From the NCBI GenBank assembly GCA_964609095.1, contig CAZSQN010000002.1:88066-152065 (forward strand): DNA of 64,000 nucleotides. The letters are read 5' to 3'. This DNA is from an uncultured Gammaproteobacteria bacterium (GTDB lineage: Bacteria > Patescibacteriota > Patescibacteriia > CAZSQN01). Shown here piece after piece: positions 15,012-61,900 of this stretch. A program made the position numbers and the translations under genes. A model generated the notes under the pieces. The model made no database searches. It had not been told where the DNA came from and saw nothing but the letters and a program-made list of their open reading frames with translations. Each line of letters opens with the position of its first letter. Position 1 is the stretch's first letter.

Positions 15012-15018
15012 AACTACT

Positions 15019-37254: not shown

Positions 37255-37312
37255 CCTGTTTTTCCATTTGTAGTAATCGCTATGTTCTACCCAGCCAATC
37301 ATAAAATAAAAA

Positions 37313-41996: not shown

Positions 41997-42015
41997 ATTC
42001 TTTAGAATAGCCAAA

Positions 42016-43500: not shown

Positions 43501-43515
43501 GAACGCGGATTGAAT

Positions 43516-44514: not shown

Positions 44515-44534
44515 ATAAATTATTCTATTTACCC

Positions 44535-44607
44535 CGTTAGAAAGACCCTCCTAAATAAATCCAACGAACCCGCTTGTCATAAATTTATAGAATGGACTTT
44601 CTAACGG
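44535..44607. repeat. 14-bp perfect inverted repeat pair separated by 45 bp
   Basis: accccgttagaaag … ctttctaacggggt. Confidence 0.7.
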
Positions 44608-44628
44608 GGTTTAATTAAAATCTTAAAT

Positions 44629-45801
44629 TTAATTTTGCCGCCATTTAATCTTTGGCAAAATAACGGATTTGTCAATTAAACGTTCGGCGTTTTTAATCTT
44701 CACAAGCATGGAATTGACCAGTTCTTCAGAAAGTTTCGTGGGGACAAGGCCTAATCCCAAAAGCTTATCATTCTTCGGATTGTAATAATGCTCTTCTTTT
44801 TCTATGCGGGGATTTTCCAAATGCTCTATCTTAACGTCTATGCCCAGTTTTGCCGCGGCGCGGGCAACCGTTTCGGCCAATTCCATAATGGAAAACACTT
44901 CCGTAAATTGGTTAAAAACCCTGAATTCGCCCGGGGCACCTGGATTTAAGACGGCGAGTTCCACGCATTGCAAGGTGTCGCGGATATTTAAAAATCCGCG
45001 CTTTTGGCCGCCCTTGCCATAAACCGTTAAAGGCATTCCGGCGACCGCCTGCACGCAAAATCTGTTCAAAGCGGTTCCAAAGACATCGTCATAATGAAAA
45101 CTCGTCCTTAAATCATCATGCAAGTTTATTTCTTCCGTTTCCAGCCCATAAACAACTCCCTGGTTCAAATCAGTCGCCTTAAGTCCCCAGACGCGGCAGG
45201 CAAATTCTATATTGTGGCTGTCATGAACTTTGCTCAAATGATAAAAAGAGCCCGGCTGCTTGGGAAAAGGCAGCCGGTCGCTTCTGCCTTTATGGTTTAT
45301 TTCTATATGGCCTTCTTCAATATCTATATTTGGCGTTCCGTATTCGCCCATTGTTCCCAGCTTTACCAAATGAGCGTCAGGCAAAGAATGCCGCATGGCA
45401 AAAAGCACGTTTAAAGTGCCGATGACATTATTTTTTTGGGTCAAAACGGCATTGTGCCTGGAGCGCATTGAGTATGGCGCCGACGGCTGTTCCGCGTAAT
45501 GCACAATGGCGTCGGGACGAAACTCTTCCATTACCCTGTAGATAAAACGGACATCTTCGGCAATATCTCCGACATAGAGCTTGATATCGCCTCTGGCAAC
45601 GGTTTTCCAGGTCGCCATGCGCGCCGGCAAAAGCGGTATTGGGTAAAGAGGCGCGACCCCAACTTGCGCTTCCCAGGCGCGCTTAATCATATTGTCCACC
45701 ACGGCGACCTCGTGCCCGAGACGCGAAAAATGCATGGCCGTAGGCCAGCCCAGGTAACCATCGCCTCCCAATATAAGGATACGCAATTTTTTGTCGCTCA
45801 T
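44629..45801 (-). CDS. sqdB: UDP-sulfoquinovose synthase (SQD1/SqdB/Agl3-like)
   Basis: Long collinear match to the SQD1 signature: ILGGDGYLGWPTAMH…VHYAEQPSAPYSM…LTQKNNVIGTLNVLFA…LVKLGTMGEYGTPNIDIEEGHIEI…LPFPKQPGSFYHLSKVHDSHNIEFACRVWGLKATDLNQGVVYG…ALNRFCVQA; the ORF-track N-extension is probably not real. Confidence 0.85.
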   Translation of the reverse strand: MSDKKLRILILGGDGYLGWPTAMHFSRLGHEVAVVDNMIKRAWEAQVGVAPLYPIPLLPARMATWKTVARGDIKLYVGDIAEDVRFIYRVMEEFRPDAIVHYAEQPSAPYSMRSRHNAVLTQKNNVIGTLNVLFAMRHSLPDAHLVKLGTMGEYGTPNIDIEEGHIEINHKGRSDRLPFPKQPGSFYHLSKVHDSHNIEFACRVWGLKATDLNQGVVYGLETEEINLHDDLRTSFHYDDVFGTALNRFCVQAVAGMPLTVYGKGGQKRGFLNIRDTLQCVELAVLNPGAPGEFRVFNQFTEVFSIMELAETVARAAAKLGIDVKIEHLENPRIEKEEHYYNPKNDKLLGLGLVPTKLSEELVNSMLVKIKNAERLIDKSVILPKIKWRQN

Positions 45802-45817
45802 TTTAGTGGAATGAAAA

Positions 45818-46504
45818 TTATAAACGGGTATGCAGACCGCATTCGCCTCCCAGATTCTGCGTGCCCGTAAATCGTCCGGCGCGCTCAAACTGCCCTTGGC
45901 GGCCTCCGCCTTCGCGCACCTTGCCGCCGGTAGTGCAGGGCTTGCAGCCCAGCGACAAATAACCATGGTCATAGAGCGGATGGTACCGGAGATTATTTTC
46001 TTTTATGTACTGCCAAACATCGTCTTTGGTCCAGAAAGCAATGGGGTTTATTTTGGCGATTTTGCCGGCCTCAACAATGGGCGTATTTTTGCGATACTCG
46101 GTTTCGTCGCGGCGCAAACCGGTAATCCAGGCGTCAAAGCGCGGCAAGGCGCTCTCAATGGCCGGAATCTTCATCTCGCAGCATTTATATTGGTCGTTCT
46201 TGATGAACGAGTCCCCATATTGTTCGTCTATCCGCTTAATGTCTTCCGAACCGGGATGCAGCCATTCAAAATTTAATTTCAATTCTTCAACCAAAGAATT
46301 GCCGTAAGACAATGTTTCTTCAAATTCATAACCGGTATCAATGCCCAAAAAACATAAATCGGGTTTGGCCTTGGTGGCCAAATCCACGATGACCCGCGAA
46401 TCCTTGCCAAAAGAGCAGGCGGCAAAAATGCGCGGATAGGCCTTGACCGCCAGTTTAATTATAGTTTGGGAGAGATCGGCTTTTTCTTTTAGAGTCAAAT
46501 TCAT
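45818..46504 (-). CDS. cysH: Phosphoadenylyl-/adenylyl-sulfate reductase (CysH family, Fe-S type)
   Basis: P-loop-like ACSFGKDSRVIVDLA; Cys pairs KCCEMK and CKPC; C-terminal ECGLH. Confidence 0.85.
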   Translation of the reverse strand: MNLTLKEKADLSQTIIKLAVKAYPRIFAACSFGKDSRVIVDLATKAKPDLCFLGIDTGYEFEETLSYGNSLVEELKLNFEWLHPGSEDIKRIDEQYGDSFIKNDQYKCCEMKIPAIESALPRFDAWITGLRRDETEYRKNTPIVEAGKIAKINPIAFWTKDDVWQYIKENNLRYHPLYDHGYLSLGCKPCTTGGKVREGGGRQGQFERAGRFTGTQNLGGECGLHTRL

Positions 46505-46508
46505 ACTT

Positions 46509-47684
46509 TTAAATCAATTTTTTTCTTAAAAGCTTCTCGTCTAAAGAGATTTTTTTTAGAACGGCGACAATCTTTTCCGCGGCCCGACCGTCTCCCAGGC
46601 GATAACCGCATTTTCTAAGTTTACCCGCAAAACTCTTATCTTCTAAAACATATTTGAGCGCGCCAATGATGGATTTTGTTTTGCCGTCGGAATCAACGAT
46701 ATTCTCTTCCCTGTCTCTGCCTTCTTGCCGCCTGCCGACGTTAACCGCCCCAAGATGCAAATAAGGCGCTTCAACAAAAGCGCAGGAAGAATTGCCGACA
46801 AGCGCGCCCGCGCCGGCAAGCAGCCCTAAAAAATCAAGATTATCTATGTTTTTCCGCACCAAAAATTGCGGGTCGTCGGAAATTTCCGAAATCGCGGAGA
46901 GCACGCCGTCGTATCCCGGATCGGAACAAGGATAAATAACAAGGGAACGGCCGCCAAAACTTTTAACCGCGGCAAATATATTGCGCGCCGCCCGGTAATT
47001 GCCCGCGCTTGTTAAATACGTATCCGGATGGTAAATGACGATAAAAAAATCTTCGCTTGGCCGCAGCCCGTATTTTGGCTTAACCAAACTTGTATCAGCA
47101 TACATTTGCTTGACGATCCTGTCAATGTAAAGCGAGCCAACCGGCTTTATGCGCCAGGCCTCTTCGCCCAAACGGCGAAGGCGGCCCGCGGCAACGGTTG
47201 TCTCCGGAAAATGAAAATGCGCCAATTTGGCAATAACATGCCTTTGCACATCGTCAATATTGCCGGATATCTCCCCGCCCTGCGTATGGAAAACCGGGAT
47301 TCCCAAATTCAAGGCCGCAAACCCGACCATCAAATGTTCTCCCCTGTCGGCATGGACCATAACAATATCCGGTTTCATTTTTTTAAGAGCCGAAGCCGCC
47401 TTTTGCTCGCAAACGCCAAGATTGCGCGCGCGGGAGAGCGATGAGTCGTCGCCTCCGGTGCCCATATCAATAAGCGTTATTTTGGAACGGGGAAAAAACT
47501 TTTTCACCTCATTTGCCGTAGCTCCGAACTCCTTTGAAGCGTGCATATCGCCGAGAAGCCACTGGAGTTCCAGCGACGGGTCGCTGTCAATCAGTTTCGC
47601 CAAAGGAAAATACGCTCCGAAACCGCCCCGCTTGCCGGAGAAAAGACAGATTTTTCTTTTTTGGACAGTTGTAGCACGGGACAT
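46509..47684 (-). CDS. UDP-N-acetylglucosamine 2-epimerase (NeuC/LegG-type, probably hydrolysing)
   Basis: …VHADRGEHLMVGFAALNLGIPVFHTQGGEISGNIDDVQRHVIAKLAHFHF…. Confidence 0.8.
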   Translation of the reverse strand: MSRATTVQKRKICLFSGKRGGFGAYFPLAKLIDSDPSLELQWLLGDMHASKEFGATANEVKKFFPRSKITLIDMGTGGDDSSLSRARNLGVCEQKAASALKKMKPDIVMVHADRGEHLMVGFAALNLGIPVFHTQGGEISGNIDDVQRHVIAKLAHFHFPETTVAAGRLRRLGEEAWRIKPVGSLYIDRIVKQMYADTSLVKPKYGLRPSEDFFIVIYHPDTYLTSAGNYRAARNIFAAVKSFGGRSLVIYPCSDPGYDGVLSAISEISDDPQFLVRKNIDNLDFLGLLAGAGALVGNSSCAFVEAPYLHLGAVNVGRRQEGRDREENIVDSDGKTKSIIGALKYVLEDKSFAGKLRKCGYRLGDGRAAEKIVAVLKKISLDEKLLRKKLI

Positions 47685-47686
47685 AC

Positions 47687-49051
47687 TTAATCAAGCAATC
47701 CTACTATAAATTCTCCTATTCGTAAAGCCGCCTGGCCGTCAGGATTATTGCAGATAACTTTGCGCATAATCTCGCGGGCTTCCGCGTCTTCCTCCGGATG
47801 CCGCAAATACAAATTGATAAAATCCTTAAATTCCTCCATGCTCTTTGCCACTCTCACCCCGCCGGTGGCAACCACCCGCGTATAATAAGAGGTTTTGAAT
47901 AAATTATTTTCTATTGAATCCCTTTTCTTTAGTTTTTTATAGCCGTCAAAAGCGACGCAAATCACCGGTTTGCCCAAAGTGATCGCGTCCAAAGAGAGGG
48001 TTGAGGCGGGATTGACCGTCACATCAGAAACATTTAACAAATTCGCCAGATGAATCATATCCTCGCGCGTCGGGTCTCCAAGTTCGGTAAAAATATCCGA
48101 CCTTCTGTGCTTGTCATCAACATAAACATTGGGTTCTTTGGCGAAACGGGAAAATCTGTTGGCGCGGCCGTCGGCAAAATGCGAACGGATAATAAGCGAG
48201 CAGGGAAAAGCGGTTTCTCCGGAATTTACCATTTTTGCCAAAATATCCGCGATGTCCTCATCATTGGGGCCGAAAAATCCTCCGGAACCGAAAAAAATAA
48301 CTTTTCTTGACGGATCAAGGCCAAGCGATTTTAAGAAACTGCCGCGTTCGGCAAAAATCCGCTCGGAATAAATATCAAACTGCGGAAAGCCCAAAACCCT
48401 GATGCGCTCCTTTGGGAAAAGCTGGGATTTGGAAGCCAGCGTCTTTAAGCTTTCATTGTAAACAATGAGCCAGTCGGGAGCGACGCGAAATAAGTATTTA
48501 TCAAACGTGTCCCAGCTTTTGGGCATAGCCACGGTTTTAACACCGCGCCTTTTCGCCTCTTTGAGCATCATCATATCAACATTGCCCAAAATAGAAGTTG
48601 AAAAAACTAAGTCCGGATTATATTTGTCAAAAAAATGTTTGTAATACCTGTCGCGGTAAAAAGTATATTCCATCCAACGAAACGCTTTTTTGACCGATCC
48701 AAACCTGGAAAAAATACGTCCGCACAAAATCCAAATTAAAAAATTCTTTAAGGAGCGTTTTCTCCGTCCATTGCCGTAACGGGCGTGGATGTAAGCGGTT
48801 TCGGTATCCACCATGTTAATCATCAATTGGGTAAAGACATTGCGCCTAAACCAGCCGGGAATAATCTTTTTAATCGGCTCAAAAACAACATTGCCATAAT
48901 TAAATTCCCGGCGGTATTCGTCCGGAATGCGGTCTGGTAAAAAAATAACTATGCGCAAATTGGGATGCTCCCGGATAACTTTAAAAACCGCGGTTCGGAG
49001 CACATTTCTCGCCGGAATACCCTGGGTAATGACGATAAATAAGGTCTTCAT
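47687..49051 (-). CDS. TagF/TagB-like CDP-polyol phosphotransferase family protein (paralog 1)
   Basis: C-terminal …DVTVNPASTLSLDAITLGKPVICVAFDGY…; paralogous to 50957-52312 and 54783-56165. Confidence 0.65.
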   Translation of the reverse strand: MKTLFIVITQGIPARNVLRTAVFKVIREHPNLRIVIFLPDRIPDEYRREFNYGNVVFEPIKKIIPGWFRRNVFTQLMINMVDTETAYIHARYGNGRRKRSLKNFLIWILCGRIFSRFGSVKKAFRWMEYTFYRDRYYKHFFDKYNPDLVFSTSILGNVDMMMLKEAKRRGVKTVAMPKSWDTFDKYLFRVAPDWLIVYNESLKTLASKSQLFPKERIRVLGFPQFDIYSERIFAERGSFLKSLGLDPSRKVIFFGSGGFFGPNDEDIADILAKMVNSGETAFPCSLIIRSHFADGRANRFSRFAKEPNVYVDDKHRRSDIFTELGDPTREDMIHLANLLNVSDVTVNPASTLSLDAITLGKPVICVAFDGYKKLKKRDSIENNLFKTSYYTRVVATGGVRVAKSMEEFKDFINLYLRHPEEDAEAREIMRKVICNNPDGQAALRIGEFIVGLLD

Positions 49052-49926
49052 AAAAATTTATTGACAAATTTTGCCGGCAAATTTTTGACTTTATGGGCCG
49101 GCGGGAGCAGGGTCTCAAAAAATCTGATAATTTGGATTTTTTTTCTAAATTTTTTTAAGTCGGGCTTTATTCCAAACTCCGCCGAGGCAACTGCCGGACG
49201 CGCGTCATCCATTCTCGCGGCAATAACTCTAATCGCTCTCGCGCCATCGGTCAAAGCAAATTTGATGATTTTTAGACCGGCTTTGGAAAGAACTAAATTT
49301 AAAGTGTGGGGGCTGTAATGGAAAAGGTGCCCCGGCTTAAAATAGCTGATGATATTTTTATTAATGCTTTCCACATTGGGAACTTCAATATAAATCATCC
49401 CTCCGTTTCCAAGCAAATCGCGGAGCGCTTCAAATTTTACGAGAGGGTCAGGCAGGTGTTCAAGCACATGGCGAAGCACGAAGAGATTAAATTTTTTATC
49501 TTTATTCGTCTCCACAAATTTCGACAGCGACGAAACAACTATTTTGGCGCGGGAAACCCGGCCGGCAAACTGCGCGGCGGCGCCATCCGGTTCAAGTCCG
49601 ATAAGTTCGGCGGATGTTCTCTCTTCAAGCGCTTTGAGCAAACGGCCATAGCCGCAGCCGATGTCAGCTATTCTGTCCGCGGCGTTCATTTCCTTTATGT
49701 ATTCATCCGCGAAATCAAGCGCGTCGGCATATTTATACAATGACTTCATCAGATTATCGCTTTCATTCGGAGCCCTGTTCCATTCCAAAACAGAATAATC
49801 TCCGGAAGTAAAAAGCAGGCCGCAATTCCGGCAGCCGGCAAGAACCGCCTCCGGTTTCCGGCGCAAAACGCAAATCAACATTTTCAAATCCGGACCGGCA
49901 TTACATAAAACGCAGTTCAACCGCAT
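49048..49926 (-). CDS. Class I SAM methyltransferase with Zn-ribbon
   Basis: CVLCN…CRNCG; motif I IADIGCGYGRLL. Confidence 0.8.
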   Translation of the reverse strand: MRLNCVLCNAGPDLKMLICVLRRKPEAVLAGCRNCGLLFTSGDYSVLEWNRAPNESDNLMKSLYKYADALDFADEYIKEMNAADRIADIGCGYGRLLKALEERTSAELIGLEPDGAAAQFAGRVSRAKIVVSSLSKFVETNKDKKFNLFVLRHVLEHLPDPLVKFEALRDLLGNGGMIYIEVPNVESINKNIISYFKPGHLFHYSPHTLNLVLSKAGLKIIKFALTDGARAIRVIAARMDDARPAVASAEFGIKPDLKKFRKKIQIIRFFETLLPPAHKVKNLPAKFVNKFL

Positions 49927-49931
49927 ATAAA

Positions 49932-50951
49932 TTAAATCAATCTAAAAACTATATATTTAAAAAATCTTTTAATCATAGCCAAAACAAAGGGCCGATTCGC
50001 AAAAACGCGCTTCAAAAAGACAAAAATTGCGCGCGCTTTTTCATTTATCTTTATCTTGCGCGCAAGCCTGAGCACATCCGAACCGCGCAAAAAAAATTCA
50101 AAAGGCATCGGCGGCCGATGGTCATTTGCCGGCGCGGCGACAAAGTTTATGCCTCTTTTTAACGGCCCTCTTAAAGACGAATCGGCCGTAAAATCCAAAA
50201 TCTTGAATCCGGCCTTAAAAAGCAGGAGAAACATAGTCCAAGGACTATAAGCGTAGACATGACGGAGAGAAACATGCTTATGCCCCAAGCTGGCGTCCGG
50301 AACGGCGATGTAAACGGCGCCTCCGGGCCTAAGCAGTTTTCGCAGCTTGCCAAGCGCGGCCACGGGGTCAAGCATATGTTCAAAAACATGGTGTAAGATA
50401 ATAAAATCAAATTCCCCATTATGAGCGCCAATGGAACAAAAATCATCAAGGCCTCCATTATAAATGTTAACGCCAAAAATCTTTCTGCCTATGTCGGCCA
50501 CGCTTTTATGCGGCTCTATGCCCAGCGCTTCGCAATGATATTTATCGCGAATGCGCCGCAAGGTGGTGGCAAAACCGCAGCCGACCTCCAGCGCCTTGGA
50601 GCCGGGCTTAATCCAGTTCGCGAGAGAAGCGACAAAAGCGTCTCTTTTCGGAGAGTCGGCGTCTTCTTCTTTAATCTTCCGTTCCAAATCGTCTTCCCTC
50701 GCGCGGCGCGCTTCCTGCCAATATTGCTCGCCGTAAAACCGGCGATAAAAATCAGCGTTGGGACGCGGACTTAAATAAACCAGGCCGCAAACCTTGCAGA
50801 TAACCGCCTGGCCGCCTTTGGGCGCCTCAAGACACGGAAGATTAATAACTTCTTGCGAATCGCAAATAGCGCAAGAAACTGTTTCAAAGCCGTAATCAAA
50901 ATTTTCTCTTTGCGGAGGATCATTATAAAATGTTGTCTTGATGTTTGGCAT
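49932..50951 (-). CDS. Class I SAM methyltransferase with Zn-ribbon
   Basis: CAIC…CKVCG; motif I LEVGCGFATTL. Confidence 0.8.
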   Translation of the reverse strand: MPNIKTTFYNDPPQRENFDYGFETVSCAICDSQEVINLPCLEAPKGGQAVICKVCGLVYLSPRPNADFYRRFYGEQYWQEARRAREDDLERKIKEEDADSPKRDAFVASLANWIKPGSKALEVGCGFATTLRRIRDKYHCEALGIEPHKSVADIGRKIFGVNIYNGGLDDFCSIGAHNGEFDFIILHHVFEHMLDPVAALGKLRKLLRPGGAVYIAVPDASLGHKHVSLRHVYAYSPWTMFLLLFKAGFKILDFTADSSLRGPLKRGINFVAAPANDHRPPMPFEFFLRGSDVLRLARKIKINEKARAIFVFLKRVFANRPFVLAMIKRFFKYIVFRLI

Positions 50952-50956
50952 AAAAT

Positions 50957-52312
50957 TTACTTCAACAATGATTGCAAAAAAGCCGCGATGCGGACAGAGG
51001 ATCGTCCATCCAATTTATAGCACATTCTGGAGCGTAAAAACTCCCGCCCAGCTTTATCCAGCTCTGGGTTTTCCAAATAAGCATTGACATGTTTCTTTAA
51101 AGCATCGGGCCCATCGGCTGCGCGAACGCCTCCGCTTTTCACCACCTTCTGATAATAAGACGTATTTAAAAGCGCCGAACCGTGTTCATCCTCTTTTAAA
51201 GCCACGCAAATCACCGGCTTATCAAATACCGCGGCATCAAGCGAGAGGCTTGAAGACGGATTAATAGTCACATCGGCAGAACGCAAAAAGTTTCCGAGCA
51301 ATTCCATGTCGCTTTTTTGCGGATCGGCCACGTTGCCGTAATCAGGCAATCGTTTAACGCTGTCATCAACGTAGACATTTGGCAATCCGGCAAAACAGTT
51401 AAACCTGACGGCGTTCTTATCTAAAAAATGCGGCCTGATTATAAGCGAACATTGTTTAACAAGCTGATTATCTTTGATAAAATCGTACAAAAAATTACCG
51501 ATATCCATATCGGAAGGCCCGTACAGTCCGCCGGAACCAAAAAAGATAACCTTACGGCCCGGATTAAGGCCCAATCCCAAAAGAAACGCGTCCCTGTCAA
51601 ACGGCTTTTTCATCTGCTCAACATAAGTATCAAAGTTAGGAAACCCGGTGACCGTTATTCCAGATTCCGGCACATCCTGAGATTTTACCGCTACTTGTTT
51701 CAAATCTTCGTTTTGCGCCATAAGATAATCGGGCTTAACGGGAAAAAGATATTTTTCAAAAGTATCCCATCCTTTGGGCATGGAAACCGTAGTAATGCCC
51801 CGCCTTTTCGCCTGCTTCAAAAGCATGACATCATACTTATTCATAATAGAAGTGGAAAAAACAACATCCGGCTTATACTTTTCAAAAATAGACTCATAAA
51901 CCATATCTTCCCTAAACAAAAACATCTCCAAACGCCTAAAAAATCTTTTGACCGTATTCAAACGGCCAAAAAGAGCGGACCAAACTATAAGAAAACCCAG
52001 ATAAAATAAGCTTCTGCCCTTCCCCGCTTGCCCGTAATGCGCCTTAAACATGGCAATGTCGCTATGAATAAGCGGCAGAATCAGATTATTAAAAAAAAGT
52101 TTCAACCGCGTGGTTGATTGTTCCTCCAAGCCAATAAAGGCGACATTGGACGCCAGAAATTCCCGCTCAAACTCGGGCGGCACATGACCGGTAGTTAATA
52201 TGTATATAAAAACATCCGGCGTCTCCTTAATAAGAGGTAAAACATCCGTGCGCAAAATATTTCTGGCAACCAAACCCGGCTCAGCGCGTATAAAAATATT
52301 TTTTCTTTGCAT
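50957..52312 (-). CDS. TagF/TagB-like CDP-polyol phosphotransferase family protein (paralog 2)
   Basis: Collinear with 47687-49051 (…PDVVFSTSIMNKYDVMLLKQAKRRGITTVSMPKGWDTFEKYLF…). Confidence 0.65.
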   Translation of the reverse strand: MQRKNIFIRAEPGLVARNILRTDVLPLIKETPDVFIYILTTGHVPPEFEREFLASNVAFIGLEEQSTTRLKLFFNNLILPLIHSDIAMFKAHYGQAGKGRSLFYLGFLIVWSALFGRLNTVKRFFRRLEMFLFREDMVYESIFEKYKPDVVFSTSIMNKYDVMLLKQAKRRGITTVSMPKGWDTFEKYLFPVKPDYLMAQNEDLKQVAVKSQDVPESGITVTGFPNFDTYVEQMKKPFDRDAFLLGLGLNPGRKVIFFGSGGLYGPSDMDIGNFLYDFIKDNQLVKQCSLIIRPHFLDKNAVRFNCFAGLPNVYVDDSVKRLPDYGNVADPQKSDMELLGNFLRSADVTINPSSSLSLDAAVFDKPVICVALKEDEHGSALLNTSYYQKVVKSGGVRAADGPDALKKHVNAYLENPELDKAGREFLRSRMCYKLDGRSSVRIAAFLQSLLK

Positions 52313-52345
52313 AAAACCGGAAGCTGGAATTATTCGGACAGGGAT

Positions 52346-53356
52346 TTATTTGTTCGTAAACATGCTTTTGGCGTATTCATCCACAAAATCGCAGCTGTTG
52401 CACAGAGGATTCTTTTTTTTGAAATAAGCCCGTAAAAACGCCAGTCGCTTTGGGGCTTTCCAAACATCCTCAAGAGTTTTTTCCAAAACATTGCCCCAGC
52501 TGTATTTGCCGTCAAAATCAAAACAGCACGGCGCCACTTCCCCGCCGGCCAAAATGGAGCACTGGCTGAACTGCGGACAAAATCCCATATTCTTATAATA
52601 ACGCGAATCATCTTTATTCTGTAATCTCTGAAAATAGGCGTCGTCCGGCAGGAAGTCGGAAATCAGCTTATCCGTTTTGTCCAGTTCCCGCCCCATGTTC
52701 GGCGCCTTAATGGCGTATTCGTCAACTCCAATTTCTTTAAGAAAATCAACAATCTTTCCTATTTCGTGCTGGTTGTGCTTAAACACAAGGGTCTGGACTC
52801 TTAATCGCGGATATTTAAGTCCGCGCCTTTTTTTCTCCGCGGTAATTTTCTTGATATTTTCTATGACGACATTAAATTTTCCTCCGACGCGGTATTTTTC
52901 ATGCGTTTCCGGGCTGAAGCCGTCAAGCACCATCTGCAAACTGGTCAGGCCCGAATTCAAAATATCATCAACGTAATGCCCGACCAGCATGGTATTGGAA
53001 GAAATGTGCGTTTTAATGCCGCGCTCGGCGCAGGCCTTAATCATCTTAAAAATATCCTTGTTCAAAAACGGCTCGCCCATCAGATAAAAAGATATGGCTT
53101 TGGCATGCTTTTCTATTTTGGAAAGTATTTGAGAAAATCTTTCAAAATCCATATGTTCCAGCTTGCGCTTCATAATAGTGTGCCACGGACACATCGGGCA
53201 TTTATGATTGCAGATATTGGTGGCTTCAACAATAAAAGAAGTGGGCAACTTTCGCGCCATAATCCATACTTTTAAACCGAGCGGGAGCTTCTTAAATAAC
53301 CTGATTTTCCAATGCTCTTTCTTTGTTTTTTTATCTTTTTGAGGGCTTTCCACCAT
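52346..53356 (-). CDS. Radical SAM / SPASM-domain protein
   Basis: CNHKCPMCPW (CxxxCxxC) and a C-terminal Cys cluster (CCFDFDG…CNSCDF). Confidence 0.8.
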   Translation of the reverse strand: MVESPQKDKKTKKEHWKIRLFKKLPLGLKVWIMARKLPTSFIVEATNICNHKCPMCPWHTIMKRKLEHMDFERFSQILSKIEKHAKAISFYLMGEPFLNKDIFKMIKACAERGIKTHISSNTMLVGHYVDDILNSGLTSLQMVLDGFSPETHEKYRVGGKFNVVIENIKKITAEKKRRGLKYPRLRVQTLVFKHNQHEIGKIVDFLKEIGVDEYAIKAPNMGRELDKTDKLISDFLPDDAYFQRLQNKDDSRYYKNMGFCPQFSQCSILAGGEVAPCCFDFDGKYSWGNVLEKTLEDVWKAPKRLAFLRAYFKKKNPLCNSCDFVDEYAKSMFTNK

Positions 53357-53397
53357 AAATTTTACGCTTAATTATAAAATATATAATAACCAAAATT

Positions 53398-54771
53398 TTA
53401 GACCGCGTCAATCTTATTAGAATCCGTTGACGGACGGAATTTGCTTATAAGAAAACTGATTAACTTGCGGTCATAATTGTCAAAAACAAAGAAGCTCCTG
53501 GCGCTGATCGTGGGAAGATTGTGCTTTTTTCTAAGATGCCTCTCGCAAATAACCGTAAAGGCGGCCATGCGCAAAAATTCCGCGTAAATAATGCCGACGG
53601 GCCCGGAAAAAAACAGTAGCAAAGGCATGGAAATAAGGTATAAAACCTTGGAGATATTGGCGACGGTAAAAATGAATTTCTGGTCCTTGACCGCGTAAAG
53701 CAAATCTTCCTGGCCAAAAGCCAGAAGATGAAACACGAACATCAGCAGATAAATTTTGAAAAAAGGCAGAGCGCCGATAAATTTAGGCAAAAGCCATTCT
53801 ATGACCGGAGGCGCAAAGAAGTAAGCGCCGAGTCCAAAAACCAGGTAAATCAGCGCCAGATATTTTTTTGCTTTCTGAACTATAAAAACAGCCGTTCCCG
53901 GTTCGGATATTTTCCTTGACACCACGGGGAAAATAACAGCCGCAACCGGAACCAAGCCCAAAAGCACTTCGTACAAATCTTTGCCCGTGGCGTAAAACGC
54001 CAGCGCGGCTTTGCTGAAAAATATGCCGATAATCAAAGGCCCTAAAGGCCTGACGGCTTGGTTCAGCAATGTTTCAAAAATCCTCCACTTTCCGTGTCCG
54101 GCCACCACCCTCCACAAGACGCCGGCGGAAGCAATTTGGACGCCTCTAAGGTAGCCCAACGCCTTAACGGCAAAAGGCAAACTGACGGCTACCACGACCA
54201 TTTTTGAAAGGACATAAGAAGCAAGAAGCGTGGTCGTGTTTAATCCGCCGGTCAAAATAAAAAAACTGGCGCCGGCTAATTTGCTTGCCGATTCAATAAC
54301 CGGCAGAAAAGCAAAGTCCTTAAATCGTTCATGGCTTCTAAAAATCTGCTGAAAGAAAACCTGCGCGACCTGCAAAACAAGAAGCGCGATAAATAAAACA
54401 AAAAACAAAGTTTGCTCCACTCCGAGAACCGCTCCGATCACCGGCTTAAAAGGAATAACCAGCAGGGCAAACAGCGCGGTAAGCGCAAAAGATGCCTTAA
54501 AATATTCAAGCATCAGCCGCTTTATGACATCAAATCTCCTTTCGCCTATGAGCCGCGCCACCTCGGAAATAATAAGCTCGTTAATCCCAAAAAGCGGGAT
54601 GGAAGCAAGGGGCGAGATCAAAGAGAGCGAGAGCAGAACCGTGCCGTAATCGCTGACGGAGATATTTCTTAAAACTATAAAAGCCGACGCCAAAGAAACC
54701 AGGCGCAGGACAATGTTTGCTCCGCCAAGCCACATCAGACCTCCGACTATTTTGCGTTTTAGGGAAACCAT
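53398..54771 (-). CDS. Wzx-like oligosaccharide flippase (MOP/PST family)
   Basis: 12-14 TM; polysaccharide-biosynthesis-protein N-terminal signature. Confidence 0.75.
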   Translation of the reverse strand: MVSLKRKIVGGLMWLGGANIVLRLVSLASAFIVLRNISVSDYGTVLLSLSLISPLASIPLFGINELIISEVARLIGERRFDVIKRLMLEYFKASFALTALFALLVIPFKPVIGAVLGVEQTLFFVLFIALLVLQVAQVFFQQIFRSHERFKDFAFLPVIESASKLAGASFFILTGGLNTTTLLASYVLSKMVVVAVSLPFAVKALGYLRGVQIASAGVLWRVVAGHGKWRIFETLLNQAVRPLGPLIIGIFFSKAALAFYATGKDLYEVLLGLVPVAAVIFPVVSRKISEPGTAVFIVQKAKKYLALIYLVFGLGAYFFAPPVIEWLLPKFIGALPFFKIYLLMFVFHLLAFGQEDLLYAVKDQKFIFTVANISKVLYLISMPLLLFFSGPVGIIYAEFLRMAAFTVICERHLRKKHNLPTISARSFFVFDNYDRKLISFLISKFRPSTDSNKIDAV

Positions 54772-54782
54772 GAAACGGATGA

Positions 54783-56165
54783 TTAAGTATCGGCGCGCCG
54801 GATTTGCGCGATCGCCTCCGCAATCCGGTCGCCTACATGGCCGTCATATTTATAAACAATTTTTCGCCGCAATTGCTCGCGCTCCGCCGCTTCCGCTTCC
54901 GGATGAAGCAAATACCGGTTAATTTCGCTAATAAGCGAATCAGGACCGTCTGCCAATCTTATGGCGCCGGTTTTAAGCCAATAGTCATGATGGTCGTATT
55001 CTTTGTAAAACTGATTTTTAGAAGTGAAATACGGCGTCGGCAAAAGATCAAAATTTAAAGAAATCACCGGCTTGTCCAAGCAAGAGACGTCAAAAGCAAA
55101 AGTGGAACCGGTCATCACCGTTAGCGAGCTGTGATAAATAAGATTGGCAAGCCAAATGATATTCTCGCGAGACGGATACCATTTATCCACAAACGCGGAC
55201 TGGTCCGTGCGGGAATCATCTATATAGACCTCCGCGTTGCCGATAAATTTCTTAAACGGATTGTTCGTATCGCGGGGATGAATGCGGGCAACGATGCTTA
55301 CCGGTTTTACAAATCTATTTTCATGTTTGGCGTTTAAAAGCAAATCAACCATTTCAGCGTCATCCCGGCTTTGCGCCGCCTCTGAAGCGTAAAGGACTAT
55401 ATTTGAAGCCGGATCAACGTTGATTTTTTTGCAAAACTCGGCGCGGGACGTAAAAATTGAAGCATCGTGATAAATATCATATTGGGAAATGCCCACCGGC
55501 AAAACGCGCTCCGGCTTAAAATTATTATGCGTTAACGCCTCTTGCTTCATAAGTTCATTCCAAACCAAAAGCAAATCCGGTTTGGCTCTGATTACTCCTT
55601 TTGAAGTAAGGTTGTCTATGGAAAGCACGCAGCCGATGCTTGGCACGCCTTGCGCTTTCGCGCGTTTGATAAACCGATGCTCCATCTGAACATGAGTTGA
55701 GACGGCCGCGTCCGGCTTATGTTCATCAAAAATTTTTTTAAAAATCTTGTCGGGAAAAAATTTGTCGTCCAGCCGCCGCAATAATTCCAACGCTCTCATG
55801 TTTCCGCGCAAAAAAAAGTGCGGCATGGAAAGAGCCGCGTAGAGCAGGTATTTTTTCCTAAGAAGCATTTTCTTTTTAAACCAGCGGACTGTCCTGGTGT
55901 TTAACGTGCTGTTTATAAGCGCGACCAAAAATCTTTCGGCAAAACCGCGGCCGTGATTTATTAAATAAAGTTTGCCGTAATCCGGATAAGGAATAAGAGT
56001 TATTTTTTCTCCCTTGTAAACCTCGCGCAAAAGGCGAAAACCGCTCTCCGGAGCGGCAATAATAATGTCGCATCCGCGGGCAAGCAATTTTTCAATGACC
56101 CCCGCGGAAATCATGTTGCGCGCGGCAATGCCAAAGGGAAAAGTGATAAGAATTTTTTTGGACAT
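54783..56165 (-). CDS. TagF/TagB-like CDP-polyol phosphotransferase family protein (paralog 3)
   Basis: C-terminal …SSLTVMTGSTFAFDVSCLDKPVISLNFDLL…Y…; same architecture as the other two. Confidence 0.65.
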   Translation of the reverse strand: MSKKILITFPFGIAARNMISAGVIEKLLARGCDIIIAAPESGFRLLREVYKGEKITLIPYPDYGKLYLINHGRGFAERFLVALINSTLNTRTVRWFKKKMLLRKKYLLYAALSMPHFFLRGNMRALELLRRLDDKFFPDKIFKKIFDEHKPDAAVSTHVQMEHRFIKRAKAQGVPSIGCVLSIDNLTSKGVIRAKPDLLLVWNELMKQEALTHNNFKPERVLPVGISQYDIYHDASIFTSRAEFCKKINVDPASNIVLYASEAAQSRDDAEMVDLLLNAKHENRFVKPVSIVARIHPRDTNNPFKKFIGNAEVYIDDSRTDQSAFVDKWYPSRENIIWLANLIYHSSLTVMTGSTFAFDVSCLDKPVISLNFDLLPTPYFTSKNQFYKEYDHHDYWLKTGAIRLADGPDSLISEINRYLLHPEAEAAEREQLRRKIVYKYDGHVGDRIAEAIAQIRRADT

Positions 56166-56168
56166 AAA

Positions 56169-56831
56169 TTACGGCGCCACGCGCGCCTTTTCCTTTTCAC
56201 AAACAAAATAATATCCGCTGGACATAAGCCGATCTATTTTTATATTTTTTTTAATATTGCCGAATTCATCGCGGATCAAAAAACTTAATTTAGGCAGGAG
56301 AAATCCCAACATTGCCCAAACTAACTTAAATAATCTGTTTGGACTGCTTGTCTGAAACGCGATCCTCTGAAAAATGACCGACAGCGCGCCCAAGGTATCC
56401 GTTTCAGGGAAACATTCAACGATGCGCCATTCCCGCAGCAGATAGCGCAGGCCGTATTCGGTAAAACGCCAAAAATCCCCCGGCGCGTCATGAATGGGGT
56501 ATAAAAACCGCGTTGTTAAAATCAATTTGCCGCCCGGACGGAGAACTCTTTTCATTTCGGCGATTGCCCGCTCCGGACTCTTCAGATGCTCAAGAACCTC
56601 TATGCACAAAACAAGGTCAAAACTGTTATCGGGAAACGGCAGCGCGTGAGCGTCGCCGACAATATCTACTCCAATGCCCGGTGCCGCATCCAGACAAACG
56701 CGGCTGGGAAAATGCGGCGCGTAAGAAGCCGCCGAACCGCACCCGACATCAAGAACGCGGCCGGCGCTTCCGTGGCGCGAGATAAATTCGTCCAGATTTC
56801 TGCGGGTTAATTTTTCCTTAAAAAATTTCAT
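56169..56831 (-). CDS. Class I SAM methyltransferase
   Basis: Motif I VLDVGCGSAAS; …LVLCIEVLEHL. Confidence 0.8.
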   Translation of the reverse strand: MKFFKEKLTRRNLDEFISRHGSAGRVLDVGCGSAASYAPHFPSRVCLDAAPGIGVDIVGDAHALPFPDNSFDLVLCIEVLEHLKSPERAIAEMKRVLRPGGKLILTTRFLYPIHDAPGDFWRFTEYGLRYLLREWRIVECFPETDTLGALSVIFQRIAFQTSSPNRLFKLVWAMLGFLLPKLSFLIRDEFGNIKKNIKIDRLMSSGYYFVCEKEKARVAP

Positions 56832-56834
56832 TTG

Positions 56835-57641
56835 TTAAAACAAATAATTCTTGCCCAAAATAAAATGATAGCGCATAAACCGCCAAACGTATTTTGGCGG
56901 AAGAGAAGCGCGAAAACCGAACTTTAAATATATCACGCCGCTTTTTAGCGCTATATATACGGCTTTTAAAAAATTATTAATTGCTTTTTTTATCCGCTTC
57001 GGCAAAGGAATGGATTTAACTCCGCCGGAGGCAAGTTCAAGATAATAATTATCTTTGCGCAGGCAGCTTTCCCAATCCTCCCACGGCGACATAATCGCTT
57101 CTTGCAGATAAATTTTATTTATGCCGTCGGGGAAAAACGGCTTTTCATGAACTTTTTTTGCGCCGCCGCCGCTCTTGTAATAAATCCCGCCCTTTCTGTT
57201 CCATACCCGCAAAGGCATATCGGGATAAAAAAAGGCATATTCAATAACCTTATCTCCGATCACCGTCTTTCTGTTAACCAAGGCGGCGTCAAGAATATTA
57301 TTGCGCGACACGATGCCTCTGATGGCAGTAACAAGCTCCGGCGTCACATACTCGTCAGAATCCACGGCAAACACCCAATCGTTTTTGGGCAGAGAAAAAA
57401 GCCGGTTGCGTACCTCAATAAAATTAGTTATTTTTACGTTTTTTTCTTTCGTTTCTGTCTGCGGGTAAATAGCCGCGCCATATTTCCCGGCTATTTCTAA
57501 AGTATTATCAGTGCTATTGCCGTCCATCACGACGATTTCATCAAACTCAACCAATCCCGACAAACACCGCTCCAATGTCTTGCCGGAATTCAAAGTCAAG
57601 ATGCAGGCGGTACAAGGAATTTTTGATTTGTCTTCCGTCAT
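56835..57641 (-). CDS. Glycosyltransferase family 2
   Basis: …CILTLNSGKTLERCL…VVMDGNSTDNT…. Confidence 0.75.
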   Translation of the reverse strand: MTEDKSKIPCTACILTLNSGKTLERCLSGLVEFDEIVVMDGNSTDNTLEIAGKYGAAIYPQTETKEKNVKITNFIEVRNRLFSLPKNDWVFAVDSDEYVTPELVTAIRGIVSRNNILDAALVNRKTVIGDKVIEYAFFYPDMPLRVWNRKGGIYYKSGGGAKKVHEKPFFPDGINKIYLQEAIMSPWEDWESCLRKDNYYLELASGGVKSIPLPKRIKKAINNFLKAVYIALKSGVIYLKFGFRASLPPKYVWRFMRYHFILGKNYLF

Positions 57642-58750
57642 AATCTGAAAAACGCTCTTATTTTTTCAATAATATGGGCCTGCTCCGGCTCTCCCAATTC
57701 CGGATAAATCGGCAAAGAAACAATTTCTTTGGAGAGCTTTTCGGCAAAGGGATATGAACCCGGCAAAAGTCCCAAATGCGCATAAGCTCTCTGCAAATGA
57801 ATCGGAATCGGATAATGAATGCCTGTGGCCACGCCGCGCTCCGCGAGATATGCCTGCAGCTGCTCGCGCTCTTTTGTCTTAATTATATAGAGATGATAAA
57901 CAGGAACACATCCTTCGGTATTTTTTACCGTTTCTATCGGCAAACCAACAAAAGCGGCATCAAATTTTTTCGCCAGTTCGCGGCGCTTTTCATTCCACTC
58001 GTCCAAATGCGGCAGTTTGATATTTAAGATCGCCCCTTGCAGCGCCTCCAAACGCATATTGAAACCGATAATTTCGTGTATATATTTTTGCTTTGAGCCG
58101 TGATCTCTAAGCAAGCGGACCGCCTCCGCCAGCTCGCCGTTACTAGTGACTACCGCTCCGCCTTCGCCATAAGCGCCCAAATTTTTGCCGGGATAAAAAC
58201 TAAACGCGGCCGCGTCCCCCCAAGAGCCGGCCTTCTTTCCCTTAAAACTCGCGCCGTGCGCTTGAGCCGCGTCTTCCAGCGTAAGAAGCCCATGGCGGCG
58301 CGCGACATCTAAAATCTTATCCATCTCGCCCATAGCGCCAAAAAGATGAACTGGGATGACAACCTTCGTAACCGGAGTAATCGCTTCTTCCAGCTTGCTC
58401 GCGTCAAGCTGGTGCGTTTCCGGATTAACATCAACAAATACCGGCTTGGCGCCCGTAAGAGAGACGGCTTCGGCCGTGGCAAAAAAACTATTTGGCTGGG
58501 TAATTACTTCTGCTCCCGGACCGCAACCCATGGCGAGAAGCGCGAGGTGGAGCGCGGAGGTGCCCGAATTCACTCCAACCGCGTATTTTGTTCCGCAGTA
58601 AGCGGCAAAATCATTTTCAAATTTTTGCACTTCCGGGCCAAGGACAAAATTGCCGCTAAGAAATACGCGCTGCGCGGCGCCATCAAGCTCGCCGCGAAGA
58701 GAAGCGTATTGGGCGCGCAAATTTACAAGCGGGATATTCATGCTGGACAT
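57638..58750 (-). CDS. DegT/DnrJ/EryC1/StrS-family PLP-dependent sugar aminotransferase
   Basis: …AVGVNSGTSALHLAL…; K in …AAFSFYPGKNLGAYGEGG…. Confidence 0.88.
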   Translation of the reverse strand: MSSMNIPLVNLRAQYASLRGELDGAAQRVFLSGNFVLGPEVQKFENDFAAYCGTKYAVGVNSGTSALHLALLAMGCGPGAEVITQPNSFFATAEAVSLTGAKPVFVDVNPETHQLDASKLEEAITPVTKVVIPVHLFGAMGEMDKILDVARRHGLLTLEDAAQAHGASFKGKKAGSWGDAAAFSFYPGKNLGAYGEGGAVVTSNGELAEAVRLLRDHGSKQKYIHEIIGFNMRLEALQGAILNIKLPHLDEWNEKRRELAKKFDAAFVGLPIETVKNTEGCVPVYHLYIIKTKEREQLQAYLAERGVATGIHYPIPIHLQRAYAHLGLLPGSYPFAEKLSKEIVSLPIYPELGEPEQAHIIEKIRAFFRL

Positions 58751-58761
58751 AAAATAAAAAA

Positions 58762-59493
58762 TTAAATTAGGCGCTTTTCCCCGACATCCCAGGCAACTTT
58801 CGCCGGATTGCCAAAGACGACTTTTCCCGCCGGAACATTGCCGACCACTACCGAACCCATCGCCACAAGCGCGCCCTCTCCGATAATCGCGCCCGGAGAA
58901 ATAGACGCGTTCGCTCCAATCATGGCCCTATCTTTTACGATTGTCTTTTTGCTGGCGTCAGGAACTCTCGCGAACGAGGCGTCGGAGCAGGTAGAAACAT
59001 CAGGACCGATAAATACATAACTGCCAATCTCCATATTTTCCGTGATTTGCGAACAATTCATAATTCTTGTATGCTCTCCGATTTTAACCCTGTCCTGGAG
59101 CGAAACGGCTTTCCCCAGCACCGACTCATCGCCTATCCGACAATTTTCCCGCACGTTAGCCATATCAGCTATAAACACATTTTTGCCGATTGAAGTCCCG
59201 CGATAAATAATAACCCCGGAGCCGATAACTGTCCCGTCGCCGACGCGAAGCGGCTCCGGGGTGGAAAGCTTGTAAGTGGAATTAGGGCCTGATTTGGGCG
59301 GCCTGCCGACAATGGCGTTATCCAAAATAATAACATTGTTGCCGATAACAGTGTCCGGATAAATAACCGCGTTATTGCCCACCGATACCCCGTCCCCTAT
59401 CTTTACCCCTTCGTAAATGACCACATTAAACTCATACAAAAAATCTTTGCCCGTGATTACAGTTTCATGTTTATGCAAATTTTTATTAAGCAT
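58762..59493 (-). CDS. Hexapeptide-repeat (left-handed beta-helix) sugar N-acetyltransferase
   Basis: Repeated [LIV]G-x4 hexapeptides. Confidence 0.8.
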   Translation of the reverse strand: MLNKNLHKHETVITGKDFLYEFNVVIYEGVKIGDGVSVGNNAVIYPDTVIGNNVIILDNAIVGRPPKSGPNSTYKLSTPEPLRVGDGTVIGSGVIIYRGTSIGKNVFIADMANVRENCRIGDESVLGKAVSLQDRVKIGEHTRIMNCSQITENMEIGSYVFIGPDVSTCSDASFARVPDASKKTIVKDRAMIGANASISPGAIIGEGALVAMGSVVVGNVPAGKVVFGNPAKVAWDVGEKRLI

Positions 59494-60778: not shown

Positions 60779-60795
60779 AATTTGCCGAATGAAAT

Positions 60796-61896: not shown

Positions 61897-61900
61897 AAAA

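Follow-up and report, generated by a model that had tools for sequence, protein, structure and literature searches.

A stretch of 64,000 nucleotides, hereafter the window, from an uncultured Gammaproteobacteria bacterium (GTDB lineage Patescibacteriota, Patescibacteriia, CAZSQN01; assembly GCA_964609095.1, contig CAZSQN010000002.1, positions 88,066 to 152,065 of the forward strand) harbours three paralogous transferase genes, designated GT_A, GT_B and GT_C, together with four genes for class-I methyltransferases dependent on S-adenosylmethionine (SAM). In a first-pass annotation, the three transferases had been regarded as TagF/TagB-like polyol-phosphate transferases of a teichoic acid- or capsule-like polymer, with transfer of acidic sugars activated by cytidine monophosphate (CMP) or cytidine diphosphate (CDP) mentioned parenthetically as an alternative. 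Active-site motifs, the nearest curated protein family and the conserved gene context favour this alternative, and the three proteins are probably glycosyltransferases for CMP-activated nonulosonic acids. To our knowledge, transferases for bacterial sialic acid-like sugars (pseudaminic, legionaminic and related acids) are scarce compared to the well-mapped biosynthesis of these sugars, and few families have experimental support. The transferases and methyltransferases are the following:

47687-49051, minus strand: GT_A, 454 residues, TagF-fold GT-B enzyme, candidate CMP-nonulosonic-acid transferase (PF04464 26.7 bits, NF046086 69 bits)
50957-52312, minus strand: GT_B, 451 residues, TagF-fold GT-B enzyme, candidate CMP-nonulosonic-acid transferase (PF04464 32.3 bits, NF046086 55.4 bits)
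54783-56165, minus strand: GT_C, 460 residues, divergent third paralog from the other deep clade (PF04464 29.4 bits, NF046086 40.7 bits)
49048-49926, minus strand: ribbon methyltransferase just upstream of GT_A (class-I by Pfam; CxxC motifs at C5/8 and C32/35)
49932-50951, minus strand: ribbon methyltransferase just downstream of GT_B (Methyltransf_23/11/12; CxxC motifs at C27/30 and C52/55)
56169-56831, minus strand: short class-I methyltransferase without ribbon just upstream of GT_C (Methyltransf_11 71.5 bits; no CxxC)
43516-44514, minus strand: ribbon methyltransferase adjoining no transferase (Methyltransf_23 86.9 bits; CxxC motifs at C42/45 and C64/67)

All open reading frames (ORFs) named in the first-pass annotation were recovered on the minus strand, and the paralogy of the three proteins of about 450 residues was established by pairwise identity, which amounts to 44 % between GT_A and GT_B (E 1e-130), 32 % across 333 residues between GT_A and GT_C (E 7e-48) and 28 % between GT_B and GT_C (E 4e-38). 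GT_A is identical to the public protein HYT45_01975 (P0002), a 'hypothetical protein' of Candidatus Uhrbacteria bacterium. The contig also occurs in the Logan assembly of run SRR12113430, and on these grounds the window is assigned to Patescibacteria. The public gene call for GT_B (P0001, 438 residues) begins 13 codons downstream of the ATG at 52312 and loses the N-terminal K-T-I-F-I strand conserved in the family; the ATG at 52312 suits the family alignment better. An AlphaFold2 model of GT_B based on 108 homologs reached a predicted local distance difference test (pLDDT) value of 94.2 and consists of two Rossmann-like halves. The C-terminal signature noticed earlier is real and conserved across the 108 homologs (S354-[ST]355, D359 and K365-P366-V-I; GT_B numbering here and below). 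Key residues of GT_B are W182-D183, R293, H295, S354-S355 and D359, and GT_C departs from the family in having I-D for W-D and H-P at the conserved His. In a neighbour-joining tree, GT_A and GT_B belong to a 10-member clade (25 of 30 bootstraps), although GT_B is more distant from GT_A than proteins of other organisms are; GT_C falls into a different deep clade. A recent tandem duplication, for which a tree had been proposed as a check, is ruled out by these positions; the genes are old paralogs from two deep clades, which fits three distinct specificities.

The PF04464 (Glyphos_transf) search likewise proposed as a check was weakly positive, since all three proteins narrowly exceed the gathering threshold of 22.1 bits; the match of GT_A is restricted to the C-terminal ~120 residues (330-450). 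The only other Pfam match of the three at E <=0.01 is a sub-threshold one of GT_C to MGDG_synth. Comparison of the family with an alignment of TarL and TarF by hhalign yielded a probability of 98.5 % (E 2.4e-14). Searching PDB sequences with the 108-sequence family profile retrieved only TarL (8VA1; E 0.004, C-terminal part), and a profile of the three paralogs alone retrieved nothing meaningful from the PDB. Foldseek comparison of the GT_B model with the PDB revealed generic GT-B relatives, headed by uridine diphosphate N-acetylglucosamine (UDP-GlcNAc) 2-epimerases (E 9e-13, template modelling (TM) score 0.58) with TagF a close second (E 7e-12, TM 0.52). Judged by sequence profiles, the homology of the family to the TagF/TagB superfamily is distant but real. 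The superfamily part of the original assignment is retained on these grounds, and the polyol-phosphate transfer part is not supported, as the active-site motifs, the nearest curated family and the gene context argue against it.

The defining feature of TagF-like enzymes is a pair of invariant catalytic histidines, both of them essential in TagB, TagF and TarL (PMC10901376; also PMC5974469). The first (TagF H444, TarL H300), located after an invariant Trp, takes a proton from the acceptor, which then attacks the β-phosphorus, and the second (TagF H584, TarL H433) contacts the α-phosphate (PMC10901376). In a reference alignment of five genuine TagF-family proteins encoded on plasmids (Staphylococcus epidermidis TarL and TarF, and proteins from Leuconostoc, Streptomyces and Pontibacillus), W299-H300, A394-P-T-x-R398, H433 and D472-Y-S-S475 are invariant (TarL numbering). 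The second histidine has a counterpart in the present family: the confident part of the hhalign alignment sets TarL H433 against H295 of GT_B, a position at which 102 of 108 members have His. The same alignment pairs G223/P225/D228 with TarL G358/P360/D363, P366 with P486, and S354-S355 (mostly Ser-Thr in the family) with S474-S475; a C-terminal DG...R is common to both. The APTxR motif of TarL (394-398) lies opposite F-G-S-x-G (258-262), and no Arg is conserved there in the family. As to the first histidine of the WH motif, no column of the N-terminal domain contains more than 33 % His among the 108 members. The N-terminal domain carries the motif M-P-K-[SG]-W-D (M178 in 104, K180 in 95, W182 in 107 and D183 in all 108 members), which sits in the loop after the strand topologically equivalent to the one bearing the WH motif in TagF. 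The catalytic-base His is not conserved in the family, and an invariant acidic residue is located nearby. A DxD motif is not conserved among the 108 members.

All long ORFs between about 32.4 kb and the window's end are located on the minus strand. Between 63.9 and 42.06 kb, intergenic gaps do not exceed 114 nucleotides and several genes overlap by 4 nucleotides, which argues for one transcription unit in which the transferase genes are co-transcribed with those for NeuC and a CMP-ulosonic-acid synthetase; a second set of NeuB and CMP-synthetase genes is situated beyond the 42.06-kb end of this tight run. The start of GT_A overlaps the end of methyltransferase gene 49048-49926 by 4 nucleotides, the NeuC gene lies 2 nucleotides downstream of GT_A, methyltransferase gene 49932-50951 follows GT_B at a distance of 5 nucleotides, and 3 nucleotides separate methyltransferase gene 56169-56831 from GT_C. 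The genes for nonulosonic acid synthesis and glycan assembly are:

46509-47684, minus strand: NeuC-type hydrolysing UDP-GlcNAc 2-epimerase (TIGR03568 NeuC_NnaA 289.6 bits, cut-off 235.9)
42057-42770, minus strand: CMP-ulosonic-acid synthetase 1 of the acylneuraminate cytidylyltransferase family (CTP_transf_3 95 bits; PseF best with 147 bits, below the cut-off of 205.7)
40437-41498, minus strand: NeuB-family synthase 1 (Pfam NeuB 229 bits and SAF; NeuB_NnaB with 266 bits ahead of PseI with 216 bits, both below cut-off)
37313-38059, minus strand: CMP-ulosonic-acid synthetase 2 (CTP_transf_3 76 bits; PseF-like 146 bits; 32 % identical to synthetase 1)
34284-36197, minus strand: NeuB-family synthase 2 (NeuB 275 bits, SAF, AP_endonuc_2; NeuB_NnaB 347 bits)
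57638-58750, minus strand: DegT-family sugar aminotransferase (DegT 404 bits; PseC-like and LegC-like matches below cut-off)
58762-59493, minus strand: NeuD/PglB-like hexapeptide N-acyltransferase (Pfam Hexapep; NeuD_NnaD below cut-off)
56835-57641, minus strand: GT2 glycosyltransferase in the same operon (Pfam Glycos_transf_2)
30899-32356, plus strand: initiating polyprenyl-phosphate glycosylphosphotransferase, divergent from the operon (Bac_transf 204 bits; TIGR03025 353.7 bits, cut-off 295.55)
52346-53356, minus strand: radical-SAM/SPASM enzyme between GT_B and the flippase gene (PF04055 and PF13186)
53398-54771, minus strand: Wzx-type flippase, Polysacc_synt (PF13440 and PF01943; ~10 hydrophobic segments in a hydropathy scan)

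The operon also contains genes for 4,6-dehydratase-like enzymes and a nucleotide-sugar dehydrogenase, and further GT4 and GT2 enzymes are encoded at 21.9-26.5 kb. By sequence, the DegT aminotransferase and the hexapeptide N-acyltransferase are candidates for steps of a legionaminic-type diamino-sugar route. Because NeuC and the hexapeptide acyltransferase are present and neither PseG nor PseH is, a legionaminic/neuraminic-type route would fit the gene set better than a pseudaminic one. The radical-SAM/SPASM enzyme and the flippase had been placed in the group earlier, and Pfam agrees; the closest solved relatives of the former by sequence are two sugar-modifying enzymes, BlsE (cytosylglucuronate decarboxylase) and BtrN, which argues for a carbohydrate rather than a peptide substrate. 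Neither an ATP-binding cassette (ABC) exporter nor a recognisable Wzy was detected among the ORFs of the window scanned. Genes for TagD/TarI/TarJ, TagA/TagO and the TagGH transporter were likewise absent from the ORFs scanned with Pfam across the 64-kb window, and a six-frame motif scan of the window revealed no TagD signature. Assignment of cytidylyltransferase 42057-42770 as TarI from a weak IspD match was rejected, the CTP_transf_3 and PseF-like scores being far higher.

The association with nonulosonic acid genes extends beyond this genome. A query with 25 family sequences, taking one genome per species, yielded 45 related loci, nearly all from Patescibacteria lineages and some from metagenome-assembled genomes labelled 'uncultured Gammaproteobacteria'. 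In the 33 of these loci that span 12 kb or more, genes within 10 kb encode NeuB in 25, a CMP-synthetase (CTP_transf_3) in 27, a NeuC-like protein in 19 and a related methyltransferase in 20. The cytidylyltransferase gene often adjoins the transferase gene at a distance of ~10-75 nucleotides (L004, L007, L019, L021, L024, L030, L036, L044), and the same NeuB/CMP-synthetase context recurs at the metagenome loci of distant homologs (L003, L004) and at loci of the GT_C clade (L056, L057). The sole homolog in 72,556 plasmids belongs to Rhizobium sp. WL3 (22 % identity); it keeps M-x-x-S-W-D, R-x-H-P, D359, P366 and DG...R, and its gene lies directly downstream of those labelled neuC and acylneuraminate cytidylyltransferase in RefSeq, with a gene of the N-acetylneuraminate synthase family 4 kb away. 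The five genuine TagF-family genes from plasmids served as a control, and four of them adjoin genes for TarI/TarJ, IspD/TarI or TagD. No relevant paper linking nonulosonic or legionaminic acids to Patescibacteria (Candidate Phyla Radiation) was found in a literature search with incomplete coverage of subscription journals.

Among 18,950 NCBIfam models, NF046086 ('BFO_1060 family glycosyltransferase') was the best match for all three paralogs, and TIGR04396 ('surface carbohydrate biosynthesis protein') a weaker one. NF046086 was matched by all 25 homologs tested (best E 5e-22), compared to 20 for TIGR04396, four for TarF and two for TarL. BFO_1060 is the ortholog in Tannerella forsythia 92A2 of the TagB-domain proteins Tanf_01245 and TFUB4_00887 (PMC5420450). 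Deletion of the latter two leads to loss of the terminal derivative of Pse (pseudaminic acid) or Leg (legionaminic acid) from the S-layer O-glycan (Tomek et al. 2017, PMC5420450), and CMP-activated forms of these sugars were detected in T. forsythia cells (PMC5420450). TagB-like nonulosonic-acid transferases are accordingly already known from Tannerella genetics; nonulosonic-acid transferases of other families are Maf and KpsS1/GT118. At E <=0.01, none of the three paralogs matches the Pfam models for GT38, GT42, GT52 or GT80 sialyltransferases, for KpsC/KpsS (GT107, GT118) or for Maf.

As the first-pass annotation had it, a class-I methyltransferase gene flanks each transferase gene (Pfam, coordinates), and the cysteine positions bear out an N-terminal CxxC...CxxC arrangement in three of the four methyltransferases. 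The pairing of each transferase with a Zn-ribbon methyltransferase was found for GT_A and GT_B only, since a ribbon is missing from the partner of GT_C (56169-56831) and the third ribbon protein (43516-44514) is not adjacent to any transferase. The two CxxC motifs are spaced by 19-23 residues, and their four Cys show no or almost no variation across 61 homologs. Methyltransferases 49048-49926 and 49932-50951 share 25 % identity over 284 residues (E 2e-28); close homologs of the latter are rare (three at E <1e-30). PDB sequence searches with the methyltransferases returned generic class-I matches only, Pfam Methyltransf_13 and Methyltransf_14 did not match the ribbon proteins at E <=0.01, and PF08484 or PF22674 was found in a few distant homologs only. 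The AlphaFold2 model of 49932-50951 (pLDDT 88; 83-97 in the ribbon strands) was more informative: Foldseek ranks 1-18 are all MtmC, KijD1 or TcaB9 (E 2e-17 to 8e-14, TM 0.58-0.65, 330-344 columns), and the next class, covering the SAM domain only, follows at 4e-11, about a million-fold worse. This match of a predicted fold suggests that the ribbon methyltransferases may act on nucleotide-linked sugars. The 'O-methylated' residues proposed earlier find no such backing, as a fold shared with C-methyltransferases does not tell carbon, oxygen and nitrogen apart.

In a HMMER search of 1.84 billion representative sequences, the family comprised 2,244 clusters (50 % identity) at E <=1e-30 and 6,098 at E <=1e-10. 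It is a large family separate from BFO_1060, whose members are listed in public databases as 'CDP-glycerol glycerophosphotransferase family protein' or 'hypothetical'. Two transferase copies are present in many related loci. Fusion proteins recur: P0116 combines a transferase (2-444) with a ribbon methyltransferase (454-756; homologous to 49932-50951 with E 6e-28; CxxC at 456 and 483), a domain order equal to the gene order of GT_B and methyltransferase 49932-50951. P0010 is also a transferase-methyltransferase fusion, P0056 and P0123 combine GNAT and transferase domains, P0220 joins a GT4 enzyme to a transferase, and P0121, P0122, P0125, P0130 and P0133 are tandem double transferases of ~900 residues; fusion to an AAA_18 kinase-like domain also occurs.

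In our view, GT_A, GT_B and GT_C are probably glycosyltransferases that add nonulosonic acids from CMP donors to a glycan linked to polyprenyl phosphate and flipped by Wzx. This interpretation is based on homology and motifs, on the fold and the fusions, and on the operon structure and the conserved neighbourhood; from it we infer which donor is used, how D183 and H295 act, in what order the steps occur and what is methylated. The family would comprise soluble or peripheral GT-B enzymes of common ancestry with TagF/TagB, mostly from Patescibacteria, that bind a CMP-containing donor in the C-terminal domain. This donor would be a CMP-nonulosonic acid, and the nine-carbon ulosonic sugar would be moved rather than the polyol phosphate of a CDP-polyol. 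Two different CMP-nonulosonic acids would be made in the cytoplasm by the two NeuB synthases and the two cytidylyltransferases, fed by NeuC, the DegT aminotransferase, the N-acyltransferase and the dehydratases. A lipid-linked glycan would be begun by the polyprenyl-phosphate glycosylphosphotransferase and lengthened by GT2 and GT4 enzymes; GT_A, GT_B and GT_C would each attach a nonulosonic acid, differing from one another in the linkage formed or in the acceptor, the partner SAM methyltransferases would methylate the sugar either while it is bound to its nucleotide or once it is in the glycan, and Wzx would move the product outward. In the active site, H295 (equivalent to TarL H433) and the Ser-Ser/Thr pair would grip the CMP phosphate leaving group, and D183 of the M-P-K-[SG]-W-D loop probably activates the acceptor hydroxyl.

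Several points weigh against this interpretation. The family is known here only from sequences, models and gene context, and the role of D183 is deduced, hhalign comparisons of the N-terminal domain with TagF being unreliable (probability 5-71 %). For this reason D183 is not claimed to occupy the same spot as the TagF histidine, whose position the strand register places nearer to M178/P179. The D/E-D/E-G motif of classical sialyltransferases is absent from all three paralogs and not conserved in the family; the HP motif at the conserved His is found among the three in GT_C only and in 10 of 108 members across the family. The NF046086 scores are far under the cut-off of 200 bits, so the window proteins are neighbours of the BFO_1060 family rather than members, and the Tannerella support itself is genetic, not enzymatic (PMC5420450). 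SpsB, a TagB-domain protein of the Bacillus subtilis legionaminic acid locus, is dispensable for Leg transfer (PMC7439481), an indication that gene context alone can mislead. Six to eight of the 33 long loci have neither a NeuB nor a CMP-synthetase gene within 10 kb, two related loci (L007, L039) contain a TagD-like HxGH cytidylyltransferase, and P0232 is fused to a CDP-alcohol phosphatidyltransferase domain, hence the family may not be uniform in its donor. Foldseek, finally, does not separate TagF from UDP-GlcNAc 2-epimerases.

Of the other explanations, the original one, true TagF/TagB phosphotransferases that move a CDP-activated polyol or sugar phosphate into a teichoic acid- or capsule-like phosphodiester polymer, appears unlikely. 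It accords with the PF04464 scores, the hhalign and 8VA1 matches to TarL, the retention of the second catalytic His and of a DYSS-like Ser pair, the P0232 fusion and the two loci with TagD-like genes, and TagF-like domains of Gram-negative capsule polymerases are known to take varied donors (PMC5974469). However, the first invariant His is not conserved, APTxR is replaced, no CDP-polyol synthase, TagA/TagO or TagGH is encoded among the ORFs scanned in the window, where export is of the Wzx type, and the context conserved across the 45 loci is NeuB plus CMP-synthetase rather than the CDP-polyol synthesis genes that adjoin genuine TagF genes. The phosphodiester polymer is not borne out on these grounds.

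The enzymes might also be polymerases of a polysialic acid-like nonulosonic homo- or heteropolymer whose chain is capped by the methyltransferase, as by WbdD in some O-antigens, an explanation we hold to be decidedly unlikely. The tandem proteins of ~900 residues recall dual-module polymerases, fusions P0116 and P0010 and the two copies in many loci suit it, and TagF itself is a polymerase (PMC10901376). In contrast, the presence of Wzx and of an initiating phosphoglycosyl transferase speaks for an oligosaccharide unit carried on a lipid, an ABC exporter and a recognisable Wzy were not encountered among the ORFs scanned in the window, and the ribbon methyltransferase resembles enzymes that modify nucleotide sugars, not WbdD.

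That the proteins are no transferases but PseG- or NeuC-like nucleotide-sugar hydrolases or epimerases of GT-B fold in the nonulosonic acid pathway, as the epimerases at the top of the Foldseek list, slightly ahead of TagF, and the location inside the biosynthesis operon could suggest, is very improbable, given that no Pfam Epimerase_2 or PseG-type match was obtained at E <=0.01, a dedicated NeuC is already there, sequence profiles tie the family to TagF-like and BFO_1060 transferases rather than epimerases, and three to four copies per locus as well as glycosyltransferase fusions suit transferases better.

Next to the genes for the proposed CMP-nonulosonic-acid transferases and their donors, the glycan operon contains a sulfur module (42754-46504, minus strand):

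44629-45972, probable start 45786, minus strand: UDP-sulfoquinovose-synthase-like enzyme (NF041015 478 bits, cut-off 575)
45818-46504, minus strand: phosphoadenylyl-sulfate reductase (above the NCBIfam cut-off)
42754-43500, minus strand: membrane protein of the TauE/SafE sulfite-exporter family

Together, these genes have the appearance of a dedicated sulfite source for a sulfonated sugar. The trio of SqdB-like, NeuC and methyltransferase genes is strongly conserved in L018 (Falkowbacteria) and L025; L057 has a sulfotransferase and an ATP sulfurylase instead. The head of the operon (59498-63944, minus strand) encodes a LuxC-like acyl reductase, a LuxE-like acyl-protein synthetase, an Fe-dependent alcohol dehydrogenase and an AMP-binding acyl-CoA ligase (cut at the window end), which may provide an unusual N-acyl substituent for the diamino sugar. 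NeuB synthase 2 is fused at its C-terminus to a xylose-isomerase-like triosephosphate isomerase (TIM) barrel, and its gene adjoins those for a GFO/IDH/MocA oxidoreductase (36211-37380) and CMP-synthetase 2; this unusual architecture suggests a modified nonulosonic acid route. The minus-strand run is broken by a small plus-strand gene (41700-42010; 99 residues, Dabb stress-responsive domain according to the public gene call), which occupies the only large gap (558 nucleotides), between the two nonulosonic acid gene sets. An ORF of the UDP-glucose/GDP-mannose dehydrogenase family (33378-34262, minus strand, 294 residues) may be truncated or decaying, as its N-domain match starts at profile position 72 and the C-terminal domain is missing.

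Elsewhere in the window, two large polytopic membrane proteins (12768-14396, minus strand; 14977-17181, plus strand) flank a PgsA-like phosphatidyltransferase (14356-14928). One of them has ~8 hydrophobic segments, the other ~15 and a soluble C-terminal domain of ~200 residues; neither matched Pfam or NCBIfam, and both are candidate GT-C-type or oligosaccharyl-transferase-like enzymes for the final transfer of the flipped glycan. The phosphatidyltransferase, the only CDP-alcohol enzyme of the window, was considered and rejected as a part of the system, being PgsA-like and 33 kb distant. Also near the glycan genes are those for a membrane-anchored subtilase with FG-GAP repeats (27723-30014, minus strand; mycosin-like by NCBIfam, below cut-off) and a PEGA-domain protein (4483-5847, plus strand); both may be surface proteins and targets of glycosylation. 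Rfam and tRNA scans detected no rRNA, tRNA or Rfam family in the window.

If the family indeed transfers nonulosonic acids, the label 'CDP-glycerol glycerophosphotransferase family protein' is wrong for at least 2,244 clusters (50 % identity, E <=1e-30) and falsely implies teichoic acids in Patescibacteria, the surfaces of which would bear several nonulosonic acids. Surface glycans are prime candidates for attachment and recognition in Patescibacteria, since these organisms live attached to host cells. The change from Trp-His to Trp-Asp would offer a possible sequence rule dividing phosphotransferases from ulosonic-acid transferases within the TagF superfamily, and TcaB9-like methyltransferases, repeatedly paired with or fused to the transferases, point to methylated nonulosonic acids, or to methylated precursors, chemically undescribed in these bacteria. 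A bolder proposal, which we regard as unlikely as a whole, is that a TagF-derived family of several thousand clusters, mostly of ultrasmall Patescibacteria, with the Trp-His base swapped for Trp-Asp, polymerises methylated nonulosonic acids into a polysialic acid-like layer, with the fused or adjacent TcaB9-like methyltransferase modifying the CMP-sugar or capping the chain, and that together with the sulfite/sulfoquinovose genes this provides a highly acidic, methylated and sulfonated coat of episymbionts.

Compared to known systems, the ribbon methyltransferases share with the nucleotide-sugar C-3-methyltransferases TcaB9, KijD1 and MtmC a class-I SAM domain preceded by an N-terminal zinc domain with four Cys; identities are 16-18 %, however, and the window proteins are ~70 residues shorter (target-normalised TM 0.50-0.55). 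The Tannerella BFO_1060 family has in common with the window family a TagB-like GT-B domain and genes linked to a locus of Pse/Leg biosynthesis and to a CMP-activated donor. DXD, D/E-D/E-G and HP motifs are reported for the Tannerella proteins (Tomek et al. 2017), whereas the first two are not conserved in the window family and HP is found, among the three paralogs, in GT_C only; moreover, the Tannerella enzymes serve general protein O-glycosylation in Bacteroidota, in contrast to the Patescibacteria host of the window family. The sialyltransferases of GT38, GT42, GT52 and GT80, the retaining pseudaminyltransferase KpsS1 (GT118) and Maf use the same donor class, CMP-activated nine-carbon ulosonic acids. 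GT-B sialyltransferases (GT80) operate by a His/acidic-residue logic. KpsS1/GT118 and the 3-deoxy-D-manno-octulosonate (Kdo) transferases of GT99, GT107 and GT140 possess a GT-B fold that is much altered and, as retaining enzymes, work by double displacement (PMC12887879). With TagF-like enzymes, the window family shares the GT-B fold, a profile-detectable homology, a CMP leaving group in both proposed reactions and, within the C-terminal domain, the GxPxxD linker, the second His, the Ser-Ser pair, KP-x-I and DG...R. The two differ in their surroundings, genuine TagF genes having TarI/TarJ/TagD neighbours and the window family being encoded amid no CDP-polyol synthase, TagA/TagO or TagGH, and in the proposed chemistry, with attack on the β-phosphorus in TagF-like enzymes and on the anomeric carbon of the ulosonic acid in the window family.

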